Part shown: piece by piece, positions 3,618 through 42,177 of the stretch
Numbering within the stretch: position 1 is the stretch's first letter
How the letters are laid out: every line of letters begins with the position of its first letter
Source: a virus
Length of the DNA stretch: 64,000 bases
Virus record (IMG/VR): IMGVR_UViG_3300030012_002710
Span: 3,718 to 67,717 of that record
Strand: one strand, 5' to 3'
The notes under the pieces: model-generated
What the model saw: only the letters and a program-made list of their open reading frames with translations
The model's database searches: none
Told to the model about the DNA's origin: nothing
Program-made: the position numbers and the translations under genes

Positions 3618-4356
3618 TATATCTAATTATATTAGATACAAAGAAGATGTAAAAGAATCTCAACCAGTATCAAGCAATGTTATTGAATATAGTAGAAATG
3701 ATTTAATAAATAAGTTTTTACCATTAGTAGAAAATATAGCTAGAAAATTTTCAACTTCACAACAAGCTTCAGGTATATTAGATATAACTGATCTAATACA
3801 AGAAGGATCAATAGGTCTTGTTAAAGCAGTTGATAAATTAGATTATTCAGTCTTATCTGAATCAAAAGATAAAGAAAAAACATTAAAGTCGTTTTTTTTC
3901 AAACGTGTTAAAGGTGCTATACGTAGAGCAATAGATCATAACAGAGGTAATATTAGAATACCTGAACATAAAATGAATGAAATACGTAAAAACCCAAAAG
4001 ACAAAAAAATGGTTGAAATGTTTTTTAATTCTATATTTTTAAGTATAGATAAAAAAACAATGACAGATGATGAAGATATGGTATACCAAATACCTGATCA
4101 ATCTGAACCATACAATATTAATATTCTAAATAGTTATTTAAAAAGTTTAATGAGAAAACATTTAGAAGAAAACGAATATGAAGTTTTAAGACTATCATAT
4201 GGCCTTGATTGTGATAAACATTCTGCTACTCAAATAGCAGATAAAATTAATATCAAAGGACCGAGTGGATATGTAAGAGTTTCTGAGCTTAAAAAGCAAG
4301 CTGTAAGAAAATTAATTGATAATGTAGATCACTCGCAAGTGCTTGATTATCTGTAA
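3604..4356 (+). CDS. phage sigma-70 family RNA polymerase sigma factor
   Basis: LPLVENIARKF, DLIQEGSIGLVKAVDK (region 2), IRIPEH, and a region-4 HTH (EVLRLSYGL...IAD). Confidence 0.92.
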   Translation: MKKYNISNYIRYKEDVKESQPVSSNVIEYSRNDLINKFLPLVENIARKFSTSQQASGILDITDLIQEGSIGLVKAVDKLDYSVLSESKDKEKTLKSFFFKRVKGAIRRAIDHNRGNIRIPEHKMNEIRKNPKDKKMVEMFFNSIFLSIDKKTMTDDEDMVYQIPDQSEPYNINILNSYLKSLMRKHLEENEYEVLRLSYGLDCDKHSATQIADKINIKGPSGYVRVSELKKQAVRKLIDNVDHSQVLDYL

Positions 4357-11584: not shown

Positions 11585-11817
11585 AAGAAAGTACAATATT
11601 AGGAAAATTTAAAAAAGTAGAAAAACAAATGTTAGCAATAACAAATGTTATTAAACGTTTAATTCAAGATATAGGATCAGTAGAATCTATAGCTAATGGT
11701 ACATTAAGTGCTTTAAAAATATCAATGACTGAAAAAGAGTGGGATGCTATAGTTGAAGAATTAAAACAAAAACACCAAGAAGAAAATAAACAAACAGATA
11801 AAAAGTTAGAACTATAA
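11581..11817 (+). CDS. hypothetical coiled-coil protein
   Basis: 78-aa ORF abutting both neighbours. Confidence 0.7.
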   Translation: MKESTILGKFKKVEKQMLAITNVIKRLIQDIGSVESIANGTLSALKISMTEKEWDAIVEELKQKHQEENKQTDKKLEL

Positions 11818-13535
11818 TGTGGAATAACGAATGGGAAAAAGGTGTTGATTATCCTTCATGGGGTAACAATGATATATATAAACAAACTATATCTGGTGGT
11901 TATTTATTTAATGGTGAATCACCCCGTGATGCTTACATGCGAGTTGCTAAAACAGTAGCAAAACGTTTATACAAACCAGAACTTGCAGATAAGTTTTTTA
12001 ATTATATATGGAATGGTTGGCTGTGCTTAGCTTCACCTGTGCTATCTAATACTGGTACAGATAGAGGTCTACCAATAAGTTGTTTTGGAATAGACGTAGC
12101 CGATAGTATAAACGATATAGGTAAGAAAAACCTAGAAATGATGTTACTTGCAAAACACGGTGGGGGTGTAGGTATCGGAGTTAATATGATTCGTCCTGCC
12201 GGAGCTAAAATTACAGGTAATGGAACTTCAGACGGCGTTGTCCCTTTTTGCAAAATATACGACTCAACTATACTCGCGACAAACCAAGGCGCCGTTAGAA
12301 GAGGAGCTGCAAGCGTTAATATCAATATTGAACACAACGATTTTCTCGACTGGCTTGAAATTAGAGAACCTAAAGGAGATGTCAATAGACAATCTCTTAA
12401 CTTGCACCAGTGTGCTGTCGTTGGTGATAAGTTTATGCGAAAACTTGAAGCAGGAGATGCAGAAGCTAGAAAAAAGTGGTCAAGACTTATACAAAAACGT
12501 AAAGCCACTGGAGAACCGTATATCTTATTTAAAGGAAATACAAACAAAGCTAATCCAGCAGCATATAAGAAAAATAGTTTAAAAGTACATATGACAAACA
12601 TATGTAGTGAAATAGTATTACAAACAGATGAATCACATAGCTTTGTGTGTTGTTTATCTAGTTTAAATTTAGCAAAATATGAAGAGTGGAAAAACACTAA
12701 TATTATACATGATGCTATATGGTTCCTTGATGGGGTACTTGAAGAGTTTATACAGAAAGCTAAAGGTAAAATTGGGTTTGAAAACTCAGTAAGATCTGCT
12801 GAAAAAGGTAGGGCTTTAGGTCTTGGTGTATTAGGTTGGCATACATATCTTCAAGAAAAAGGTTTACCTTTTGAAGGATTATTAGCTCAATATGAAACAA
12901 GAAAAATATTTAGTCAAATAAAAATAGAATCTGAAAGAGCATCAATGGCTTTAGCTGAAGTTTATGGTGAGCCATTATGGTGTGTTGGTACAGGTATGCG
13001 TAACACTCATTTAAGAGCAATTGCACCAACAGTTTCTAATAGTAAACTAGCAGGTAATATATCACCTGGTATTGAACCATGGGCTGCAAATGTATTTACA
13101 GAGCAGTCTGCTAAAGGTACATTTATAAGAAAAAATCCTACATTAATTAAATTATTAAGAAAATATAAATTAAATACTAATGAAATATGGGATAAAATAT
13201 TAGAAGATGGTGGATCAATACAAGATATAAAAGAACTTGACAATATAGTTTTCGCTAATGATATACCTGTAAAAGAAGTATTTAAAACATTTAAAGAAAT
13301 AAATCAACTAGAATTAGTTGCACAAGCTGGTTTAAGACAACAATATATAGATCAATCAGTATCTCTTAATCTTGCGTTTCCATCAGAAGCAACACCTAAA
13401 TGGATTAATAAAGTACATTTAGAAGCTTGGAAACAAGGTATTAAAACTTTATATTATATGAGAACTGAATCTGTGTTACGTGGAGATATAGCTGCTAAAG
13501 CTATGGATGATTCTTGTGTAGCTTGTGATGGATAA
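11817..13535 (+). CDS. nrdA: ribonucleotide reductase class I alpha subunit (short, no ATP cone)
   Basis: SPVLSN, SCF, GGGVG, TNICSEI, APTVSNS, DQSVSLN, KTLYY, C-terminal CVACDG. Confidence 0.95.
   Translation: MWNNEWEKGVDYPSWGNNDIYKQTISGGYLFNGESPRDAYMRVAKTVAKRLYKPELADKFFNYIWNGWLCLASPVLSNTGTDRGLPISCFGIDVADSINDIGKKNLEMMLLAKHGGGVGIGVNMIRPAGAKITGNGTSDGVVPFCKIYDSTILATNQGAVRRGAASVNINIEHNDFLDWLEIREPKGDVNRQSLNLHQCAVVGDKFMRKLEAGDAEARKKWSRLIQKRKATGEPYILFKGNTNKANPAAYKKNSLKVHMTNICSEIVLQTDESHSFVCCLSSLNLAKYEEWKNTNIIHDAIWFLDGVLEEFIQKAKGKIGFENSVRSAEKGRALGLGVLGWHTYLQEKGLPFEGLLAQYETRKIFSQIKIESERASMALAEVYGEPLWCVGTGMRNTHLRAIAPTVSNSKLAGNISPGIEPWAANVFTEQSAKGTFIRKNPTLIKLLRKYKLNTNEIWDKILEDGGSIQDIKELDNIVFANDIPVKEVFKTFKEINQLELVAQAGLRQQYIDQSVSLNLAFPSEATPKWINKVHLEAWKQGIKTLYYMRTESVLRGDIAAKAMDDSCVACDG
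12220..12582 (+). CDS. candidate +1-frame overprinted helical protein inside nrdA
   Basis: 120 stop-free codons with a concurrent GC/codon shift in nrdA; coiled-coil-like sequence. Confidence 0.55.
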   Translation: MELQTALSLFAKYTTQLYSRQTKAPLEEELQALISILNTTIFSTGLKLENLKEMSIDNLLTCTSVLSLVISLCENLKQEMQKLEKSGQDLYKNVKPLENRISYLKEIQTKLIQQHIRKIV

Positions 13536-13610: not shown

Positions 13611-13964
13611 TTAATATGTCCATATTACATCTGGTGATTTAGAAGGATCAGAATCTACATGAATAAAAGTATTACCTACTCCTATACGATTAAATCCTAC
13701 GTCTAATAAACAATTAATTAGATCATATCTATCCCTTGAATTATTACAATGCAAATCAGCTGCATAGCCTGTTAAGTGAGATGAATTAGGTTTACCACCT
13801 ACTTTAGCATTATGAGCTGATGTGCGCATACCACTGTTTATTTTAATAGGTTTATCAAATTTAGATCTTGCTAAATCTAATTTTTCTAGAAAATCTACAT
13901 TCATTAACCTACCACTACCTACCTCATCAGGTGAATCAAACTCAGTTATAGTAAAATATCTCAT
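13611..13964 (-). CDS. endolysin, peptidase M15 family
   Basis: INSGMRT..HN..VGG..NSSH..G.AAD...FIHVD; likely start at 13964 (ATGA overlap). Confidence 0.9.
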   Translation of the reverse strand: MRYFTITEFDSPDEVGSGRLMNVDFLEKLDLARSKFDKPIKINSGMRTSAHNAKVGGKPNSSHLTGYAADLHCNNSRDRYDLINCLLDVGFNRIGVGNTFIHVDSDPSKSPDVIWTY

Positions 13965-14401
13965 TTTTCCCCACATTTTTTACTTGGATCATTAACTTGT
14001 CTCCAGTCTTCTTTTTCAAACCAGTCTCTTAATGTAGCACCTTTTTTTCTAGCACCTTTAACATTAGTGCTTGAAGATCTTTTATATTTACCTGCTGCAC
14101 CAGATTTTTGTTTAGCATTAACAAGTTTTTGTCTTTCTTCTTTACTCATACTTTTTATTTTAGAAGCAGGTAAACAAGTTTTTCTAGTACCACCACCTTT
14201 TTGTTTTTTAGCAGGGCCAGATCCTTTTTTTCTACAACTACCTTTAGAAAATTCAGAAGTACCAGGTACTCTTTCATAACCCGCCCAACACTCAAGTGGT
14301 GATGGTGGTTGAATAAAGCCTAATTTTTTAGGGCCTTTTTCTCCTTCTTCATTGCGTTTAGCCCAAACAGCTTTTCGCTGTGCTGCACTTACAAATCCCA
14401 T
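13961..14401 (-). CDS. basic modular virion-associated hypothetical protein
   Basis: 146 aa; short modules FVSAAQRKAVWA, CWAGYERVPG...KGSC, CLPASK, LRDWF.KEDW. Confidence 0.75.
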   Translation of the reverse strand: MGFVSAAQRKAVWAKRNEEGEKGPKKLGFIQPPSPLECWAGYERVPGTSEFSKGSCRKKGSGPAKKQKGGGTRKTCLPASKIKSMSKEERQKLVNAKQKSGAAGKYKRSSSTNVKGARKKGATLRDWFEKEDWRQVNDPSKKCGEK

Positions 14402-34786: not shown

Positions 34787-36238
34787 TTAAACTCCTTTGA
34801 ATAATACAAAGTTGTTTGCAGCTTGAGTTACTAAACATCTTTCTGATAGGAAGTTGACTTCCATAGCATCAAGATTAGAAGTGTAAGCACCTCCTGCTGA
34901 ACCAGTTAACCAAGACTTCATTCGTCTGTCTTCTGTTTGAGAAGCTCTATATCTGACGTGTAAGAATGGTCTTCTAATATTTGTACCTAAAATTTGATCG
35001 TATACAGTTGATGTACCTGCTGGTATTAAAACTCCTTCAATAGACTGAGTACCATCAATAGCACCTCTTGTAGAAGCGTCATTTAAGTATTTCCAGTCAG
35101 TTTTGTAGAAGTCATATGAACCTCTTCTAAAACCACTAAAACCTAAGTTTAAAGCCATTTCTTCAGAGTTTTCAAATAAACCGTAAGCAGTACCACCACC
35201 TTGACCGATAGATATGTTTGACAACATATTATCAAATTCTAGTGCAGTTGATCTTTGTAAGAACAACATATTTTCTTCAATAGCACCTTGAGTGTCTAAG
35301 TTTTTAAGTATTGCATCAAAGTCATCTAGACCAGAAGCTCCAGAAAAACCTACTTCAACATTACCTCTTGATGAGATAGCAGCAAAAAGACCTTCAGTAC
35401 CTTTAAAACCTGAAGCAGCAGCGTTATTTCCAGCGGCCGCAGCAGCGATCTCACCTTCAACACATACCATTTCTAGGTAATCTTCAAATCTTAATCTTGT
35501 TTCAGATTCAGCTTTTAAGTACCATAAATAACCTGTAGTACCATCTTCAGTAGTTACTTCAACCCAACCAATTTGAGCCATATCAGAACCATTTATTGTA
35601 TAAACATTTCTAATTATAATTGGTGAATTGTTGTACTGTTGAAAAGAAGGTGTAATAGTTACTTGTGGTTGAACAGTATTATTTAAGTTGTTAAGACCAG
35701 CGCCTGCATTAGATGTAGAAGCACCTTTAACAAATTCTGAACCATAAACAAATATTTTTACTGACGTACCTAAGCCACTAAGATCTGTAGTTAAATAAGG
35801 AGCAACAGTCACTGCACCTGTAGTAGTGTTAGATGCTGTTACAACACATTTAGCTTCATTACCAGCATCGTCTAAAACTACAATAGTTTGTCCGGGAGAT
35901 ATTACATTTCTTGTAACACCTGGAGCTGTAGCAGCTGGTACTGTAATTATAGATGGGTTAGCCTGGTCGTTAACACAATTATCATATGCTATATGTAATC
36001 TGTTTTGCTCTGACCAAACAACTTGATCTGAAGTCAGAGGCATTTCAGCACCTACCATACGTAAAAAACCAGAAAGAGTTCTGTTTCCATATCTTTCTAC
36101 TTCTTGTTCGTATATTTCAGGTAGATATTGCTGAGCAAAATCATTATTACCATCTGTAAAAGATAGGTAATTGCTGGCTAATAGCTGCTGATTAGGAGCA
36201 GGAACTATTGAGCCAAACTGTGGAGTTAAAATTCCCAT
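34787..36238 (-). CDS. major capsid protein
   Basis: 483 aa after the scaffold; QQYLPEIYE.EVERYGNR, WSEQ.RLH, LGF.GFRRGSYDF motifs recalled from Bacteroidota phage capsids. Confidence 0.85.
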   Translation of the reverse strand: MGILTPQFGSIVPAPNQQLLASNYLSFTDGNNDFAQQYLPEIYEQEVERYGNRTLSGFLRMVGAEMPLTSDQVVWSEQNRLHIAYDNCVNDQANPSIITVPAATAPGVTRNVISPGQTIVVLDDAGNEAKCVVTASNTTTGAVTVAPYLTTDLSGLGTSVKIFVYGSEFVKGASTSNAGAGLNNLNNTVQPQVTITPSFQQYNNSPIIIRNVYTINGSDMAQIGWVEVTTEDGTTGYLWYLKAESETRLRFEDYLEMVCVEGEIAAAAAGNNAAASGFKGTEGLFAAISSRGNVEVGFSGASGLDDFDAILKNLDTQGAIEENMLFLQRSTALEFDNMLSNISIGQGGGTAYGLFENSEEMALNLGFSGFRRGSYDFYKTDWKYLNDASTRGAIDGTQSIEGVLIPAGTSTVYDQILGTNIRRPFLHVRYRASQTEDRRMKSWLTGSAGGAYTSNLDAMEVNFLSERCLVTQAANNFVLFKGV

Positions 36239-36254
36239 AATTTATTTTCAATTT

Positions 36255-37517
36255 TTAATTAAACGTTCTTTTTTTTATTTTCAATTTTGAAGAATCAAGA
36301 CCACTAACTGCTTTTACTTTTAAACCACCTATAAATACTTCTCCAGATGCTGTTTTACGAGGTTCTGTACTAATATTTTTAGATTTTGCTAATTGTTCTT
36401 TTATTGCATCAGTTTTACCTTGCTCATAAAAGTGATTAGCTATAGTATCAACATTTTGTGCTGCATATAAAGCTTTGTGATAACCAGCTGTGTCTTCAAT
36501 TTCTCCACTTTTGCCTAGAAACTTTCCGACAAAATTAGATAAGTCACTTTGGTTATTTGCAACAGATGAAGGATCTTTTATTCCATATCTAAACTTTTTA
36601 TCTCCTAATTTAAAATCAAAACCTTTGAATTCTGGGTTAAGCATTTGTTTAGTATTAGATACAAATCTTTCATGTCTAGCTTTTTGCTGTTCTCTATCTT
36701 CGTTATAGCGATTAAAAAAGTCTATTGCTTTTTGTTGTTCTTGTGTTACGCCAGGCCTCAACTTGATTTCTGCGTAATAATCTTTTTTAAGACCATCTAA
36801 AAAACTTTTAGCTTTTGCTATTTCTTCCTTGTAAGCGAGTTTTTTCTTTTTAATATCTCGCTCTTCATCGACCTCTTCATCATACTTAAAAGTATCTTCA
36901 ATTATAAAATTAACTTCTTCAGCATTTAAATGAGGTTTTGCTTGCTTGTAATATTCATGTAATAATGCTTCATCATTTACTTTACTATAATCAGCATTAA
37001 GTCTGGCATAATCTTCAATTGATCCACCAGTTTCTTCCATAAATTTTACTAATTTTTCTATGTTTTCAGGTAGCTTTTGTGCTTCTGCTTCCTGTAATAC
37101 TTCTTTTTGTTCCGATGTGGTAGTGGTAGTTTCATTGCTTCCTGCCACTCCTGCCTTGTTAGAATTATCTTCTTCATCTGTAATTTCTTGTAAAGGTGAA
37201 TCAGTTTCTATTTTTTCTTCTGACTCTTTATCTTTAACATCGTCGCTGGACTCTTGTATTTGTTCGTCCACCTTAGGGCTATCTCCGGTTTGTTCGCCCA
37301 CATCCACTTTCTCTGTTTCTCCGATTGAAATGGCATCTTTTTCTTCTTTTTTACTTAAATCTACTTTTGTTACTGTAGGTTTTTGTTTTTCTTGTGACAA
37401 AACTTTAGCTTTTTTAACTTTAAAACTACCTTCTGTTTTAACTTCTTCTACAGGTTTTGCCTCTATTTTTGTTTCTTCTTTTACTTCTTCAACTTTTTTC
37501 GTTTCTTTTTTTGACAT
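36255..37517 (-). CDS. capsid scaffolding protein (acidic)
   Basis: E/K-rich disordered N-terminus; located between portal and capsid. Confidence 0.75.
   Translation of the reverse strand: MSKKETKKVEEVKEETKIEAKPVEEVKTEGSFKVKKAKVLSQEKQKPTVTKVDLSKKEEKDAISIGETEKVDVGEQTGDSPKVDEQIQESSDDVKDKESEEKIETDSPLQEITDEEDNSNKAGVAGSNETTTTTSEQKEVLQEAEAQKLPENIEKLVKFMEETGGSIEDYARLNADYSKVNDEALLHEYYKQAKPHLNAEEVNFIIEDTFKYDEEVDEERDIKKKKLAYKEEIAKAKSFLDGLKKDYYAEIKLRPGVTQEQQKAIDFFNRYNEDREQQKARHERFVSNTKQMLNPEFKGFDFKLGDKKFRYGIKDPSSVANNQSDLSNFVGKFLGKSGEIEDTAGYHKALYAAQNVDTIANHFYEQGKTDAIKEQLAKSKNISTEPRKTASGEVFIGGLKVKAVSGLDSSKLKIKKRTFN
37058..37177 (-). CDS. overprinted +1-frame basic peptide (39 aa) inside scaffold
   Basis: Hand-translated MKKIILTRQEWQEAMKLPLPHRNKKKYYRKQKHKSYLKT*. 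Confidence 0.6.
   Translation of the reverse strand: MKKIILTRQEWQEAMKLPLPHRNKKKYYRKQKHKSYLKT
37208..37336 (-). CDS. overprinted +1-frame basic peptide (42 aa) inside scaffold
   Basis: Hand-translated MPFQSEKQRKWMWANKPEIALRWTNKYKSPATMLKIKSQKKK*; N-terminus resembles that of the free-standing gene 13961-14401. Confidence 0.7.
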   Translation of the reverse strand: MPFQSEKQRKWMWANKPEIALRWTNKYKSPATMLKIKSQKKK

Positions 37518-37545: not shown

Positions 37546-39954
37546 TTATCTTGGGGTAAATTGTTCTAACCCAAAACCATCAAGACTATCGTTATCTGAT
37601 TCAAAATTTTTAGGTAATAAATCATTTTGTCTTTGACTAATAAGTTCACTTTGTTGTGTTCCTTGTATTTTTACTCTTTTATCTTTACGATCTTCGATAG
37701 CTGCTTCTTTTTGTTGTTGTGCTTTAGCTTGTACTTCAGCTAATTGAATATCATAATTAAACTCTTCAGCCATTAATTGTTTTTTAATTAACGCTTCTTG
37801 TTCCATTTTTTGTATTTCAAATTGAGATTTAGCTTGTTCTATTTGTATTTCAGTTTCAGCTAAAGCTTGTTGTTTTTGTACTTCAGCAAGAGCTGCTTTT
37901 TCAGCAGACTCTGCATTAGCTTGAGCTTGAACTTGAATGTTTTCTAATTGTTGTGCTCTATCTTTTTCCTGCTTTTTCTTTTGTCTTAATTTTAAACTTT
38001 GATTAGCAAGTTTACTATTTTTAATTTGTCTTAAATCTATAGCATCTTCTAAACCTATATTTCCAGCTTGCAAAGCTATTTGTATGTTTTGTTCTAATGC
38101 AGCTTTATCTTCTTCTTCTGGTTCGAGTTCTAAATAAATACCAAAATCATGCATACTTAATTTTTGTATTTCTGATAAGGTATTTGTATTAAAAGTATTT
38201 ATACTAGATAATAAACTTTGTCTTGTTAAAGGAAAGTTTAACATATCCGCTACTCTTAAGCTTATATTTTCACAAGTTCTTACAGTTAAATACATTAAAG
38301 ACTGTAGTATATGTCTTGTAGCAGTATTAGAGTTTGCTGCTGCTAATTTTTGTAATCCAACTAAAGCATCTTTTGCTGGTGTTGTTCCATCTCTTGCTTC
38401 ATTTAAACCGGTTACATCACGTATCATTTGTAAATAATATTGATATGTTTGTATCATAGCTGATATTTTACCCATACCATTTGAAGTTTGTAACTCTTGA
38501 ACAGGTACTTTACCTCTATTTATTTCACCATCTTGAGTTAGTGATCTACCAACAATACTACCAGTTTGAAAATACATATTTAATGCCTCGGCTGGATTAT
38601 AATTTGTACCGTTACCTAAATCAACTTCTGCTAAACCATCTACATCTAAATATACACCATCAGGTACCATTCTTGATAACACTTGTTGTAATTTTAAATG
38701 CGTAAGTTGAATCATATCTGCAAAACCTATTGTTTTACTTACAACAGACTCTATTCTACCTTGATACATTCTAGGAGCAGATATAATATAATTCATATTT
38801 ACTTTTGTTGTATCGCCAAAAGGTCTAGTCATATTTTCACTTAATCTCCAATCTAATAAGTTTTTACCTAAACCTAAAACTTTTGCACCTGTATATAAAA
38901 CTTCTATTGATCTACCAACTCTTTCAAAATTATCATTAGGTGGAGGATCAAAAGTATCTGGTTTTTCTAATGTTTTTTCTAAACCTTGATCTGTTTGTTT
39001 TATTTTAAACACTTGATCATGATATGTTTTATATTCAAAATATAAAACTTGAACTTGATCTTTAGTGCTTTGTCCCCACCACGTATTATCAGTGTATGAG
39101 TTTCTACCCGGATATTTTTGTATTTCTTCTAATTCTTTATCACTTAAATAAGGAAACTGTCTTTTAACTTCAGACAAAGACATGTTTTTTACTTCACCTA
39201 CATAATATATATCTTCAAAGTTTGGATCATCAGTATAAGAATATACAATGTTTGCAGGATTTACATAATCAACTGTTACACCTTCTGATAAATTAAAATT
39301 AGTTTTTACACAACCTATTCCTAAAATAGTTAAATCTTGTGCTAATCTTTTTTTAGTTTCATCATATTTATTAAAATCAAGTATATTATTAATAACTTCT
39401 TCTTCAGCTATTTCAACACTTTGTTTATATTTTAATTGTAAATATAATTCTAATTCTTCCGGATCATCTGGTAATGCTTCTGGGTTAGGTGAGTTATAAA
39501 AACTTCTACCAGTTAATTGAGCTAATTGTTGTATAGCCTCTTTATTTTGTATATCTCTTAAAGCATTAAAAGCAAAATTAGTTCTTTCTTGTATAGCAAA
39601 AGGATCTTGAGCATAAGATTTTATTTCATATCCTTTATCTGTCATACCATTAACTACTATATCTACAAATTTAGATAATATAGGAACAGGTTTCCAGTCT
39701 AAATTTAAATAAGATAAATCACCATTAATAGCTAATTCATCTTTGTATTTTTGAACAGGTTGTTCTCCTCTAGCATATAATCTTAATCTGTTAAAATTTT
39801 GAAAATTACTAAGAAATCTATTCTGACCACTACTATTTTTAAACCACTCACCTTCAATAGCTTGTGCTACCTGTAAACCATATTCTCTAGACTTTTTCAC
39901 TTCTTCAGGTACCACCTGATCAGGAAAAGCACTATTATAGTTAATGTTAACCAT
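37546..39954 (-). CDS. portal protein
   Basis: 802 aa directly after terminase; long Q-rich C-terminal barrel helix as in P22-type portals. Confidence 0.85.
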   Translation of the reverse strand: MVNINYNSAFPDQVVPEEVKKSREYGLQVAQAIEGEWFKNSSGQNRFLSNFQNFNRLRLYARGEQPVQKYKDELAINGDLSYLNLDWKPVPILSKFVDIVVNGMTDKGYEIKSYAQDPFAIQERTNFAFNALRDIQNKEAIQQLAQLTGRSFYNSPNPEALPDDPEELELYLQLKYKQSVEIAEEEVINNILDFNKYDETKKRLAQDLTILGIGCVKTNFNLSEGVTVDYVNPANIVYSYTDDPNFEDIYYVGEVKNMSLSEVKRQFPYLSDKELEEIQKYPGRNSYTDNTWWGQSTKDQVQVLYFEYKTYHDQVFKIKQTDQGLEKTLEKPDTFDPPPNDNFERVGRSIEVLYTGAKVLGLGKNLLDWRLSENMTRPFGDTTKVNMNYIISAPRMYQGRIESVVSKTIGFADMIQLTHLKLQQVLSRMVPDGVYLDVDGLAEVDLGNGTNYNPAEALNMYFQTGSIVGRSLTQDGEINRGKVPVQELQTSNGMGKISAMIQTYQYYLQMIRDVTGLNEARDGTTPAKDALVGLQKLAAANSNTATRHILQSLMYLTVRTCENISLRVADMLNFPLTRQSLLSSINTFNTNTLSEIQKLSMHDFGIYLELEPEEEDKAALEQNIQIALQAGNIGLEDAIDLRQIKNSKLANQSLKLRQKKKQEKDRAQQLENIQVQAQANAESAEKAALAEVQKQQALAETEIQIEQAKSQFEIQKMEQEALIKKQLMAEEFNYDIQLAEVQAKAQQQKEAAIEDRKDKRVKIQGTQQSELISQRQNDLLPKNFESDNDSLDGFGLEQFTPR

Positions 39955-42177
39955 CTAATTTAGTATTTTTGAATTTACTCCTTTATTATCATATTTTTTG
40001 AAACCTAAAGGTACAGTTGTTAATTTTCTTTCAGCAACAGGTCTATATCTATTTTTATTACAAGCCATAATAGCAAGACCAGAGCTTATAGAAGCATCAT
40101 GTGATGTTCTATTATTAATGTTAAATTGTGCCCAGTCTTCTAATGTGCGTTGAAAATACATATCACCGTAATTTTCACCATCAAATCCTATAAAATTTTC
40201 TATATAATCTTCTATAGCAGCTGCATGAGCTTGTTTTATATCTTCACTAGAATTAGGTATTCCACCTATCTCTCTTTCTGTTACAGATAATTTATTATAT
40301 ATTTTATCAGGTCTATTCATTGAATAACCTCTATAACCTCTACGTTTTAAATAATATAAAAGTCTAGGTTTGTTATTTTCTGCAAGTATAGGCATACCGT
40401 AAAATACAATTGCCATTAAAACATCTTCAAAAAATATTTCTGCAGTTTGTGGTCTAGCTATATACTCTAAAAAAAATGTATTAGGCGGAACATCCGCCAT
40501 TGTAAACTTAGTTAAACCATGTAAAGATCCTTTAGATCCTCTACCGTCAACAGTTCCTGATATATCATATGGATCACAACCAAAAGCACCACAGTCTTCA
40601 TTAGCTGGATATTTTATACCATTTTTAACTATATATCTATTTTGTAAATTAATAGGTGGTGTCCATGAAATAAAAAATCTACCACTGTTATTAGGAACAA
40701 ATATAACTCTAGTATCTTTAATCCCACTTTCCCATTGAAAATTACCTTGTGTAATTGCTGTAGAGTGTTTTAAATCTTCATTATAATCTATTTGTTCATA
40801 AATTTTTGCAAGATTAAATAAAGATTCTTTAGCTTCATCTCTAAAAGCATGTTTTTCTGTTCTTGGAAATTGTCTATATAATTCGTTTAAACCGTCTTGA
40901 TCATCTTTTAAACCTTCAACTTCGTTTTCCCAGTGTGATATAACCCCGATCTCAATTGTTGTTCCATCGATGCTTTTAACTGGTTTTTCTGGTGTGTCGA
41001 ATACAGGAAAGCCATAAGTATCGATGTATCCTTCGTAGTTCCATTCCATAGGTATGAACAAAGAATATAATCCTGAACCAGTCTGTCCGTTGCGGTTTCT
41101 TTTTGTAACGTCTGAAGCATCATATAGTTTTTTAAAATTAGCACCACCTTTATCTAAAGCATTAGAGGTAGAACCCATCATACATTTACCTACAATCCTA
41201 CTTCCAAGTCTTAACGTTGTCTTCGTGACCCTCCAGTTGTTGAGGATGTTGTCCGGTCTCTCCCATTTACCCGACTCATCATGGGCGAGTAACCTGAGTT
41301 TCTCCCCGTCGTAGGAGTTGTCACCGGTATTCTTCCAGTCAATGGTAGTATCGAGCCCGATGAGTTCCTCGGGGGTGTCGTTCTGCTCGATCTTACGGCG
41401 GGTGAACTTCGATGCCGGTACCCTGTATGCCAACTCAGTCTTTGGCCTGTCCATACCGTCCTGAATTGGTTTGAAAAAAAACGGGTAGTTGACCGATATG
41501 GGTACCACTTTATCTGTGAACATCTTCTTTGCATCTGCACCAGTCTTGGATAAAATGCCATACCTGGAGTCAGCGGAAATTGTAGCTTGATGAACGAGTT
41601 CTGAGGATGCCATGAAGCTAAAGCCAGACCGTCTATTCTTGAGGTAACACATTCCATAGGATCTATGATCCAACTTACACGCTTCCCAGAATATAAAGAA
41701 TAAGCGGTTTGATTCTCTGAACTGCGCAGAGCCAACGTCAATTTTTGTCCACTGCAAGTACATATAATGAGAGCCAGTAATGTAAGTAGGAATACCTTTG
41801 TTATAGAAGCTAAAGCCTTGTTCCCTTCTTTTAAACTCTTCATCAATATAATCATACCATTTATTTTTAAAATCAAGCGATGTTTGATTCCAATCAAAAA
41901 CAGTTTTTAATTTAGTTAATTGTTTTGGATAATCAAAAACCTCCCAATATTGCTCTTGTTTTTTATTAGATCTTTTATACGTTTTTTCTAGTAAAGGTAA
42001 AGCTATTTTTAAACCTTGTATTTCATATATTTCACCAATTTTACCAGTTTTACTTATAATAATAACATCATATTCTTTATTATAACCTGGTTCCCATTTA
42101 TTATATCTATTATTTCTAGCTATAATTTTTGGTTTTATATGATTATCTAAAACTTTATATAATGTTTGTTTATACAT
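39955..42177 (-). CDS. terL: terminase large subunit
   Basis: Walker A-like LKNRRSGFS, Walker B LAHDESGK, GST coupling motif, nuclease GCDPYD, ENNK and HD motifs. Confidence 0.92.
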   Translation of the reverse strand: MYKQTLYKVLDNHIKPKIIARNNRYNKWEPGYNKEYDVIIISKTGKIGEIYEIQGLKIALPLLEKTYKRSNKKQEQYWEVFDYPKQLTKLKTVFDWNQTSLDFKNKWYDYIDEEFKRREQGFSFYNKGIPTYITGSHYMYLQWTKIDVGSAQFRESNRLFFIFWEACKLDHRSYGMCYLKNRRSGFSFMASSELVHQATISADSRYGILSKTGADAKKMFTDKVVPISVNYPFFFKPIQDGMDRPKTELAYRVPASKFTRRKIEQNDTPEELIGLDTTIDWKNTGDNSYDGEKLRLLAHDESGKWERPDNILNNWRVTKTTLRLGSRIVGKCMMGSTSNALDKGGANFKKLYDASDVTKRNRNGQTGSGLYSLFIPMEWNYEGYIDTYGFPVFDTPEKPVKSIDGTTIEIGVISHWENEVEGLKDDQDGLNELYRQFPRTEKHAFRDEAKESLFNLAKIYEQIDYNEDLKHSTAITQGNFQWESGIKDTRVIFVPNNSGRFFISWTPPINLQNRYIVKNGIKYPANEDCGAFGCDPYDISGTVDGRGSKGSLHGLTKFTMADVPPNTFFLEYIARPQTAEIFFEDVLMAIVFYGMPILAENNKPRLLYYLKRRGYRGYSMNRPDKIYNKLSVTEREIGGIPNSSEDIKQAHAAAIEDYIENFIGFDGENYGDMYFQRTLEDWAQFNINNRTSHDASISSGLAIMACNKNRYRPVAERKLTTVPLGFKKYDNKGVNSKILN
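40908..41123 (-). CDS. candidate second +1-frame overprinted protein inside terL (71 aa from ATG 41123)
   Basis: Stop-free +1 frame coinciding with a second GC-elevated patch of terL. Confidence 0.4.
   Translation of the reverse strand: MMLQTLQKETATDRLVQDYILCSYLWNGTTKDTSILMAFLYSTHQKNQLKASMEQQLRSGLYHTGKTKLKV
41211..41843 (-). CDS. overprinted +1-frame putative lipoprotein inside terL
   Basis: 228-codon open frame (41211-41897); signal-like KVFLLTLLALIICTC; R/S/T/P-rich tail; about 55% GC counted over 41281-41400 vs 22-27% in sampled flanking terL. Confidence 0.7.
   Translation of the reverse strand: MKSLKEGNKALASITKVFLLTLLALIICTCSGQKLTLALRSSENQTAYSLYSGKRVSWIIDPMECVTSRIDGLALASWHPQNSFIKLQFPLTPGMAFYPRLVQMQRRCSQIKWYPYRSTTRFFSNQFRTVWTGQRLSWHTGYRHRSSPAVRSSRTTPPRNSSGSILPLTGRIPVTTPTTGRNSGYSPMMSRVNGRDRTTSSTTGGSRRQR

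Follow-up and report, generated by a model that had tools for sequence, protein, structure and literature searches.

A putative basic phage peptide gene embedded out of frame in the acidic linker of a scaffold-position gene

Can the acidic, apparently disordered part of a phage head gene carry a second gene in another reading frame, and if so, from where might such a gene come and what might its product do? The question is raised by a locus of a marine phage, in IMG/VR virus record IMGVR_UViG_3300030012_002710, a complete record of 67.7 kb, of which we analysed one strand of positions 3,718 to 67,717; this whole stretch of 64,000 nucleotides (nt) is called the window below, and all positions are counted from its first letter. 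On the minus strand of the window an open reading frame (ORF) of 42 amino acids (aa) with an ATG start, MPFQSEKQRKWMWANKPEIALRWTNKYKSPATMLKIKSQKKK, lies entirely within a 420-aa gene of the same strand and in a shifted frame, which is the geometry of an embedded gene pair. The comparisons described here make it very probable that 37208-37336 (-) is a real, selected, embedded coding gene, a grading that excludes its function. The features at issue are the following, the coordinates of the nested ORF being those of the ORF list and including the stop codon.

36255..37517 (-): the host gene, 420 aa, in the scaffold position between the portal gene and the major capsid gene
37077..37517 (-): the part of the host gene that encodes its predicted-disordered residues 1-147; the nested ORF overlaps residues 61-104
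37208..37336 (-): putative nested +1-frame gene for a basic peptide with three predicted helices, of the 'MPFKSxKQ' family (ORF list, homologues, codon-phase test)
37337..37361 (-): A-rich stretch just 5' of the nested ATG, the likely initiation region, read in frame 0 as scaffold ...DLSKKEEK

The nested ATG stands 181 nt downstream of the ATG of the host gene, which places the small ORF in frame +1, and the two reading frames specify products of opposite charge: the peptide has a net charge of +10 and an isoelectric point (pI) of 10.6, and the host residues 61-104 that it overlaps have a net charge of -11 and a pI of 4.1. The peptide is Trp-rich, amphipathic and strongly basic, and its sequence holds no Cys, no hydrophobic segment and no lipobox. 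A preliminary description of this DNA, made from its letters, had already pointed to a basic 42-aa ORF in the +1 frame preceded by an A-rich region, and both parts are borne out by the ORF list, by the charge and by a content of 75% A over positions -20 to -1 of the nested ATG. The existence of the ORF is unremarkable by itself, because the genes of the window (45 gene-like ORFs, 57,333 nt) hold 19 same-strand, alternative-frame ATG ORFs of at least 42 aa, the 15 longest of which are all in frame +1. Existence alone is therefore not beyond chance; it is the homology and the conservation that exceed it.

Conservation was assessed in the two frames separately. For the peptide frame, column entropy by codon position was calculated on per-subtype codon alignments of whole scaffold genes, which replaced a pooled ungapped phase analysis blurred by indels between subtypes; the nested peptides fall into quite different subtypes (T1, T1b, T2, T3 and T4), all of which keep the MPF..S..Q start, and the nested segment entered in this test comprised 20 codons at the nested start. 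Gene-wide, scaffold position 3 is the most variable, at about 1.0 bit, whereas in the first 20-25 nested codons it is the least variable. There, scaffold position 3 is position 2 of the peptide codons, and it is scaffold position 1, which is the wobble position of the peptide, that varies most. The values for four subtypes were as follows.

T1: 29 distinct genes; scaffold position-3 entropy 0.26 in the nested segment, 0.77 at its lowest elsewhere
T2: 13 distinct genes; 0.20 in the nested segment, 0.64 at its lowest elsewhere
T3: 12 distinct genes; 0.15 in the nested segment, 0.50 at its lowest elsewhere
T1b: 7 distinct genes; 0.25 in the nested segment, 0.53 at its lowest elsewhere

None of about 300 outside segments was as low as the nested one in any of the four subtypes; the sequences within each of these selection tests are related, so that the entropy result is no formal probability and draws its weight from its repetition in four subtypes. 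For the host frame, 58 distinct nested peptides were each recoded synonymously 2000 times with the scaffold genes' own codon usage. The scaffold frame is stop-free over the peptide in 58 of 58 cases, an outcome to which recoding assigns a median probability of 0.001 and at most 0.01, and the third frame is stop-free in none of the 58. T is avoided at the wobble position of the peptide (0.051 versus 0.380 in ordinary codons), because it would make TAA, TAG or TGA in the scaffold frame before codons for Lys, Glu, Asn, Asp or Arg, and the linker between two conserved scaffold motifs occurs in 21 different lengths, all of them in frame. By the entropy pattern in the peptide frame and the stop-free scaffold frame in all 58 cases, both frames are, to judge from these alignments, maintained under purifying selection. 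The doubt that the preliminary description had raised against itself, namely that the segment might be conserved only in the scaffold frame, has fallen away, as the segment is conserved more in the +1 frame than in frame 0.

The arrangement recurs among relatives of the host protein, at least 596 of which are present in IMG/VR. Among the best 80 of these, 70 share with the window, at the same place, a +1-frame ATG ORF of at least 30 aa that starts with MP and begins in the first 600 nt of the host gene; the nested ORF is terminated by a stop codon of its own in 70 of the 80 loci, and the N-terminal 60 residues and the C-domain of the host protein share one frame in 80 of 81 sequences. An independent retrieval, in which 22 mostly free-standing family members served as query and 80 of 404 confirmed family loci were examined, gave 40 nested copies among the best 80 loci, every one of them within a scaffold homologue that shares 42-82% C-domain identity with the window. 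Two kinds of variant were seen beside the common form. Five loci that lack an ORF with the MPF start (L039, L041, L046, L055 and L060) have a 42-43-aa +1 ORF in the same linker, starting ML(S)K(R)KN..., which could be a much diverged or decaying peptide. L058:2995-4180, on the same contig as L102, has a stop in frame 0 after 77 codons, and its peptide frame runs through into the C-domain of the scaffold. The resulting 347-aa 'MPF-scaffold' fusion is either a real variant or a single-base assembly error; the proteins P0004 and P0014 show a similar read-through from peptide into scaffold sequence and end off frame.

The second line of evidence is homology. One near relative of the peptide, P0002, is likewise 42 aa long and 81% identical over the first 27 residues (E = 5.3e-7, word-indexed search), and a tblastn search against 50,697 phage records returned 12 records, each aligning to residues 1-23/24, among them C75C1 (67% over 24 aa, E = 8e-4); P0002 and C75C1 establish a significant similarity to free-standing members. 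In the three tblastn records inspected (C75C1, P-RSP2 and FlowerPower) the match begins at the Met of a small ORF. The family ORFs of C75C1, P-RSP2 and S-CBS2 are unannotated, the homologue in Streptomyces phage FlowerPower is the annotated gp48 (YP_009838084.1), and a search with family member P0003 led to the annotated 39-aa protein URG13095.1 of phage 023Pt_psg01. A HMMER profile built from 25 nested peptides and run against 1.84 billion cluster representatives gave 3423 matches at E<=1e-3, 23 of them at E<=1e-10; the matched proteins are 42 to 475 aa long, mostly 40-100 aa, and the match begins at residue 1 in 134 of the 150 matches listed. The window ORF matches this profile with E = 1.1e-19, being itself part of it. 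A second database added 325 matches of 20-97 aa, none with a Pfam domain or a name beyond 'hypothetical protein'.

In an alignment of 40 sequences, with the window's peptide as first row, the residues M1, P2, F3, S5, Q8 and P17 never vary, and at least 90% of the sequences have W23; the family motif is thus M-P-F-x-S-x-x-Q from Met1, with a Pro at about residue 17 and a Trp at about residue 23, and the window's peptide conforms to it. The free-standing members (FlowerPower gp48, URG13095.1, C75C1, P-RSP2, S-CBS2 and phrog_1375) share the motif in the form MPF/Y-K-S-x-K-Q-R.., with the same Pro and Trp and a basic tail; they fall in the same size range as the window's peptide but are not embedded, and their function is likewise unassigned. 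Members of the family are found in phages with Gram-positive, cyanobacterial and Bacteroidota hosts. To PHROG family phrog_1375 the window's peptide has a weak match (E = 0.0054, 18.1 bits, residues 3-29), and other family members match it with E = 4.2e-5 to 2.6e-3; Pfam holds no family for the peptide, nor for sets of 25 and 40 family members, and a tblastn search of the phage collection with a subtype-T3 peptide (L022) gave no match. All this indicates that the peptide is a member of a large, widespread and unnamed family of small phage proteins. The motif that the preliminary description had named as that of a stand-alone small phage protein is real, in that both tblastn and profile searches find many such proteins starting with it; its other doubt against itself, a lack of stand-alone homologues, has fallen away too. 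The inference that a single DNA segment specifies both an acidic part of the scaffold and a basic peptide from a recurrent family is supported by these homologues and by the +1-frame conservation. The companion proposal, that the two products could serve as charge-complementary capsid components, stands as a conjecture, of which the opposite charges are the part observed. The SP[AL] motif noted at the same time proved to be a more local feature: its 'SP' is invariant in a 16-sequence alignment of subtype T1 (P30, L34) but is not shared by the whole family.

Two further observations concern the family as such. DUF3008 (PF11450) was considered as a name for it and rejected, since neither the set of 25 nor that of 40 family members gave a match at E<=10; a connection exists only through the Atlas, where one cluster, reached with a feature score of 0.83, carries DUF3008 in 15% of its members, the other clusters reached being unnamed viral ones. 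Long proteins in which an N-terminal MPF motif is joined to a C-terminal DUF6321 domain (PF19846, E = 2.9e-22) are found in P0138 and in L121:6001-7830, and they link two families of unknown function.

How would such a gene be expressed? We propose that the peptide would be made by independent internal initiation at the invariant ATG on a late head-module mRNA, from an A-rich, Shine-Dalgarno-free leader of the kind used in Bacteroidota. All 67 distinct segments compared keep the nested ATG, and the preceding three codons are A-rich and nearly invariant; over 67 distinct loci, entropy is low at codons -4 to -2. With a position weight matrix derived from the 25 nt upstream of the window's 45 gene starts, the leader of the nested ATG scores 6.05, a value above 87% of the 45 true starts and within the top 0.2% of 1211 internal ATGs. 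The leader has A at -3, -6, -12 and -13; an A at -3 favours initiation in Bacteroidetes, which initiate without Shine-Dalgarno use (PMC6847099). Cultured relatives of the virus point to Bacteroidota as the host phylum. Contigs from the RNA libraries of two runs span the nested ORF (X1 record 7, 37030-37384; X5 record 12, 37152-37336), and the X5 contig differs at three sites, two of them silent in the peptide and scaffold-changing and one the reverse, which are too few to count.

The setting of the pair is a head module. The late genes run on the minus strand in the order large terminase, portal, 420-aa gene, 483-aa head protein gene.

39955-42177 (-): large terminase gene
37546..39954 (-): portal gene (802 aa), the next gene upstream of the host gene (phrog_6547 portal protein, E = 2.1e-141)
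34787..36238 (-): probable gene of the major capsid protein (483 aa), the next one downstream of the host gene (phrog_13704 'virion structural protein', head and packaging, E = 1.4e-87)

The 483-aa gene is likely to be that of the major capsid protein by its position. The 420-aa host protein has no significant match among Pfam or PHROG families, scaffold families included, and we call it a scaffold protein by its slot between the portal and major capsid genes and by its elongated, helical predicted shape. In an AlphaFold2 (AF2) model, residues 1-106 and 114-147 have a predicted local distance difference test (pLDDT) score below 50, and residues 151-380 are helical, with long helices at 219-253 and 259-292; the segment overlapped by the nested ORF is accordingly predicted to be a disordered linker, which is acidic and, on comparison of the loci, variable in length. 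The C-terminal 270 residues are 32% identical to a protein at the same position in Flavobacterium Elemovirus phages, where it is annotated 'structural protein', and there are also matches in Cellulophaga, Tenacibaculum and Maribacter phages.

Where family members stand alone, their neighbours are often of the same kind. The 39-aa homologue of phage 023Pt_psg01 lies between portal and head protein genes, and that of S-CBS2 between the major head and decoration protein genes. We surveyed 27 IMG/VR loci, namely 24 of 27 free-standing copies and three inside an opposite-strand ORF, scanning up to three ORFs on each side against PHROGs; the free-standing L107, L141 and one more were omitted, and seven minus-strand ORFs were left out. 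The 66 upstream ORFs include portal families (10 member-matches) and large-terminase families (about 13 member-matches), and among the 54 downstream ORFs there are matches to a protease and a scaffold, as well as six to the 'GroES' family phrog_3188 and six to major head families. The motif also forms the N-terminus of nine long proteins (139-926 aa), which follow large portal or virion-structural ORFs, and one of which precedes the same GroES/head pair as the free-standing copies. The free-standing gene thus usually fills the portal-scaffold slot in which the window has it embedded. Two features of these neighbourhoods may be recorded separately: in L105, L114, L115, L117, L118 and L123 an ORF of about 90-93 aa, overlapping the portal gene at its end, extends precisely to the start codon of the free-standing peptide gene, and phrog_2524, of unknown function, has five matches in the upstream set, the source ORFs of which are not discernible from the scan. 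That the ORF of about 92 aa found before many free-standing copies might have given rise to the N-terminal 60 residues of the scaffold was considered and set aside.

What, then, might the peptide do? AF2, given the 40-row alignment, predicts helices at residues 6-15, 17-27 and 30-40 with a mean pLDDT of 76.6, reaching 85-92 over the first 20 residues. We suggest, as an assignment to which we would give somewhat less than an even chance, that it is a small basic head-assembly or head-internal protein acting with the scaffold or core, of which the N-terminal helix-turn-helix motif would be the working part. The suggestion is based on the synteny with portal and capsid genes, on the strictly N-terminal motif that also heads long proteins in the scaffold slot, on the fact that both host genes of the embedded copies probably have products located inside the procapsid, and on the spread of the family across phages of unrelated hosts.

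The second of these host genes is found in the Elemovirus phages. Their scaffold homologue is 340 aa long and has no nested ORF; the profile finds the peptide elsewhere in the genome (E = 4e-13), as a 42-aa ORF lying +1 inside an 11-kb giant 'structural protein' gene (3694 aa), which is open throughout across it. This nested peptide (L085:1501-1629, corresponding to NC_055853.1 52379-52504) is unannotated there. The same peptide is present in 68 Flavobacterium phage records; in the 60 of these listed, its position falls within the annotated giant gene, which in one of them is represented by a counterpart. In MW202828.1, a freshwater podovirus (L171:1501-1632), the peptide is again unannotated and nested +1, at codon 865 of a 3860-aa giant gene, and peptides of the Elemovirus subtype are also nested in the scaffold genes of L026, L040 and L067.

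Within the scaffold clade, peptide type and host-gene phylogeny do not run in parallel. The subtypes are scattered on a scaffold C-domain tree, with 23 label changes versus a minimum of 8; the window (T1) is closest to L009 (T2), at 84% identity, and the loci without a nested ORF are placed inside the T3 clade. One of the latter, L038, is near-identical to L028 (T3), with a linker of about 45 residues replaced between '...VDLSKKE' and 'PIQEVTEEE' (scaffold codons ~38-85). Because the subtypes are scattered on the tree, and because L028 and L038 differ almost solely in the linker, the peptide-coding linker is evidently exchanged as a unit among close relatives. We propose that the peptide gene would be the older partner, with the scaffold reading frame running across it in this phage group, and that the peptide-coding linker would now act as a cassette exchanged by recombination among relatives. 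The host frame, where it encodes this predicted-disordered acidic linker, tolerates what the peptide frame imposes on it, provided that no stop arises. The age and spread of the family, its two host genes and the swapping of cassettes suggest capture by the host frame and not de novo overprinting.

A wider reading of these data, which we regard as a serious possibility and place just short of evenly balanced, is that of a mobile dual-coding cassette, in which an ancient head-module gene rides out of frame in the disordered acidic linkers of different virion genes. Its carriers would be the scaffold gene in the clade of the window and the giant internal virion protein in Elemovirus-like phages, and homologous recombination at conserved flanks would uncouple peptide type from host-gene phylogeny. 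The embedding would have arisen by a host frame engulfing a pre-existing gene, the reverse of overprinting; the opposite charges would be built into the genetic code, GAA/GAT being read as AAG/ATG, and may be exploited for scaffold-peptide or DNA-peptide interaction in the procapsid.

Several points weigh against the picture of an expressed, exchangeable gene with a role in the head. The MPF ORF is absent from nine of the 80 relatives, and the peptide is therefore dispensable there or encoded elsewhere; neither the L039 contig (40 kb, 62% complete) nor two shorter fragments of ORF-lacking relatives hold a copy elsewhere, these being incomplete records from which absence does not follow. The A-rich leader could be a mere side effect of Lys/Glu-rich coding, and the RNA-library contigs cannot tell strand, ends or frame, nor RNA from carried-over DNA; translation is argued from comparison and not from ribosome profiling or peptide mass spectrometry. 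The scaffold C-domain tree comes from a quick IQ-TREE search with a midpoint root. As to function, the search has yielded no Pfam family, a weak PHROG match to a family of unknown function and no structural neighbour: a search of PDB sequences gave nothing beyond an artefact in which weak repeats of designed propellers were summed, the four Foldseek matches in the PDB all had E>=6.9 and none was a neighbour of known function, and a predicted complex of the portal (34-row alignment) with the peptide (40-row alignment) scored 0.00 with a mark of 0.32, was run without controls and is uninformative on binding. Finally, the FlowerPower copy lies between a small 'peptidase' and the holin, outside the head module.

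This last location is also the starting point for the alternative that survives best, which is that the gene is real and serves outside head assembly, be it as a cationic, membrane-active lysis accessory or as an Arg/Lys-rich, RNA- or DNA-binding late regulator. FlowerPower-type Streptomyces phages have the homologue at the end of the structural module in seven records, cyanopodovirus P-RSP2 has it among small early or middle ORFs, and the Trp-rich, amphipathic and strongly basic character of the peptide would suit such a role, as would its helix 1, which presumably resembles arginine-rich antiterminator motifs. Most free-standing copies (27 loci) and the long forms are nevertheless found in portal, terminase or capsid neighbourhoods; the range of hosts, from Gram-positive bacteria to cyanobacteria and Bacteroidota, argues against an envelope-specific role, and the peptide has none of the hydrophobic segment, Cys or lipobox that would speak for one. 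We consider a role of this kind unlikely, with the head-assembly assignment remaining our preferred, if tentative, reading.

Much less weight attaches to the idea that the peptide sequence is expressed mainly as a fusion, either of the scaffold N-terminus with the peptide or of the peptide with the scaffold C-domain, through frameshifting or transcriptional slippage on A-runs and with no separate 42-aa product. A-rich runs do flank the nested ORF on both sides, the L058 contig and the proteins P0004 and P0014 read from the peptide into scaffold-frame sequence, and some long proteins of other phages begin with the motif. Set against this are the invariance of the nested ATG and the position of the family motif, which is always at Met1, free-standing copies included; moreover, going upstream from the nested ATG, a stop interrupts the +1 frame after a few codons (6 in the window, 0-34 in most loci), and 70 of the 80 loci have the ORF closed by its own stop. 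The further off-frame residues at the ends of P0004 and P0014 point to indel errors, and no canonical slippery heptamer was seen by eye, no formal search having been made. An obligatory fusion is thus very improbable compared with a separately initiated peptide.

Slighter still is the chance that the nested ORF is untranslated and that the +1 pattern is a by-product of constraint on the scaffold protein or on the nucleic acid, such as RNA structure or a packaging or regulatory site. The 19 alternative-frame ORFs of at least 42 aa in the window, the fact that acidic, GAA/GAT-rich coding automatically yields stop-poor, Lys-rich +1 frames, and the inability of RNA-library contigs to resolve frames all leave room for it. 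The constraint is nevertheless periodic in the peptide frame, with the peptide wobble varying and the scaffold wobble frozen, the peptide is homologous to thousands of free-standing small proteins, and 58 distinct sequences from very different subtypes retain both the ATG and the open frame; a host segment that is predicted to be disordered and varies in length also argues against strong constraint from the host protein. Equally improbable is an arrangement of three genes (a small ORF, a free-standing peptide and a shorter scaffold) in which the long frame is not read through and the overlap is an annotation artefact, since, for all that free-standing copies elsewhere lie between portal and scaffold or capsid genes, often after an ORF of about 92 aa, and that frame 0 of L058 stops after 77 codons while its peptide frame continues into the scaffold domain, frame 0 is open in 58 of 58 cases versus about 0.001 by synonymous recoding, T is avoided at the peptide wobble (0.051 versus 0.380) as an open frame 0 requires, the 21 linker lengths are all in frame, and the N-terminal 60 residues and the C-domain of the host share a frame in 80 of 81 sequences.

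Returning to the embedded gene as the favoured interpretation, we may ask how it compares with systems already described. To our knowledge, spanins provide almost the only known instances of genes embedded out of frame in tailed phages. Among these, the embedded type (lambda Rz/Rz1) is described as a small +1-frame gene wholly inside a larger gene of the same strand in tailed phages, the shared DNA of which encodes a flexible linker of the host protein; the same pair is non-embedded in other phages, and the small gene is routinely missed by gene callers (PMC6139136). The window pair is alike in strand, in the +1 frame, in its place over a linker of the host protein, in having non-embedded relatives and in having been missed by gene callers, and by its sequence it appears to be a genuine embedded gene with an Rz1-in-Rz-like architecture. 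It differs in that its proteins are unrelated to the spanins and belong to the head and not the lysis module, in that the embedded partner comes from a very large, mostly free-standing family, and in that this family is also embedded in a second, unrelated host gene and fused to others as an N-terminal domain. Identity with an Rz1-like o-spanin was rejected, the peptide being without a lipobox Cys or hydrophobic stretch and the host gene lying between portal and capsid genes.

A second comparison is offered by the single-stranded DNA microvirus phiX174, in which lysis gene E lies out of frame inside gene D, that of the external scaffolding protein; the product of E is a membrane protein and blocks MraY, and the gene counts as a de novo overprint. 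The window likewise has a small out-of-frame gene inside a scaffold-position gene, but here it is the embedded gene that belongs to an old and widespread family and the host frame that looks younger, and there is no sequence relation between the two systems. As to the free-standing members, small prohead-core proteins of T4 (gp67, which is acidic, and gp68) have their genes between those for the portal and for the protease/scaffold, and the genes of portal-associated minor head proteins of the SPP1 gp7 type follow that of the portal directly; these share the post-portal position, an analogy of position alone.

A literature search, which did not extend to supplementary files, found no description of the nested gene or of the arrangement, and this is not proof of absence. 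If the interpretation is right, the locus would be a second widespread case of embedded genes in tailed phages, placed in a head-assembly module and with computational support of unusual strength, in that the subtypes are independent, both frames were tested and free-standing as well as fused homologues exist. The locus also exposes a family of several thousand small phage protein clusters that lacks a name, a Pfam entry and a function and is skipped by gene callers when embedded, and provides a natural system for comparing engulfment and overprinting as routes to overlap, as well as the part played by disordered linkers in giving room. A direct test is feasible, since there are Elemovirus isolates that grow on Flavobacterium sp. 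BAL314 and since the start codon can be altered silently with respect to the host frame: the nested ATG has as its middle base the third position of a host Asp codon (GAT GCC), where a substitution can abolish the start and leave the scaffold protein as it is.

Some further features of the window deserve mention. The preliminary description had likened the start of the nested peptide to that of a free-standing gene at the end of the late operon, which follows a 2311-aa gene and encodes a very basic protein with Cys.

13961..14401 (-): gene for a free-standing basic 146-aa protein, the first 22 residues of which loosely resemble the family motif (hhalign)

The likeness of the first ~22 residues stands as loose and suggestive (hhalign probability 18.8%, 41% identity over 22 columns), whereas kinship is not established: the gene is not among the family-profile matches at E<=1 in the window's own genome, and it has no Pfam or PHROG family. 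Among the other alternative-frame ORFs of the window, a 120-aa +1-frame ATG ORF (12220-12582, +) lies within the 572-aa gene ORF 11817-13535, which is also overlapped by an antisense 231-aa ORF (12002-12697). By far the longest is at 41211-41855 (-), a +1-frame ATG ORF of 214 aa (228 aa from a TTG) within the terminase gene 39955-42177.

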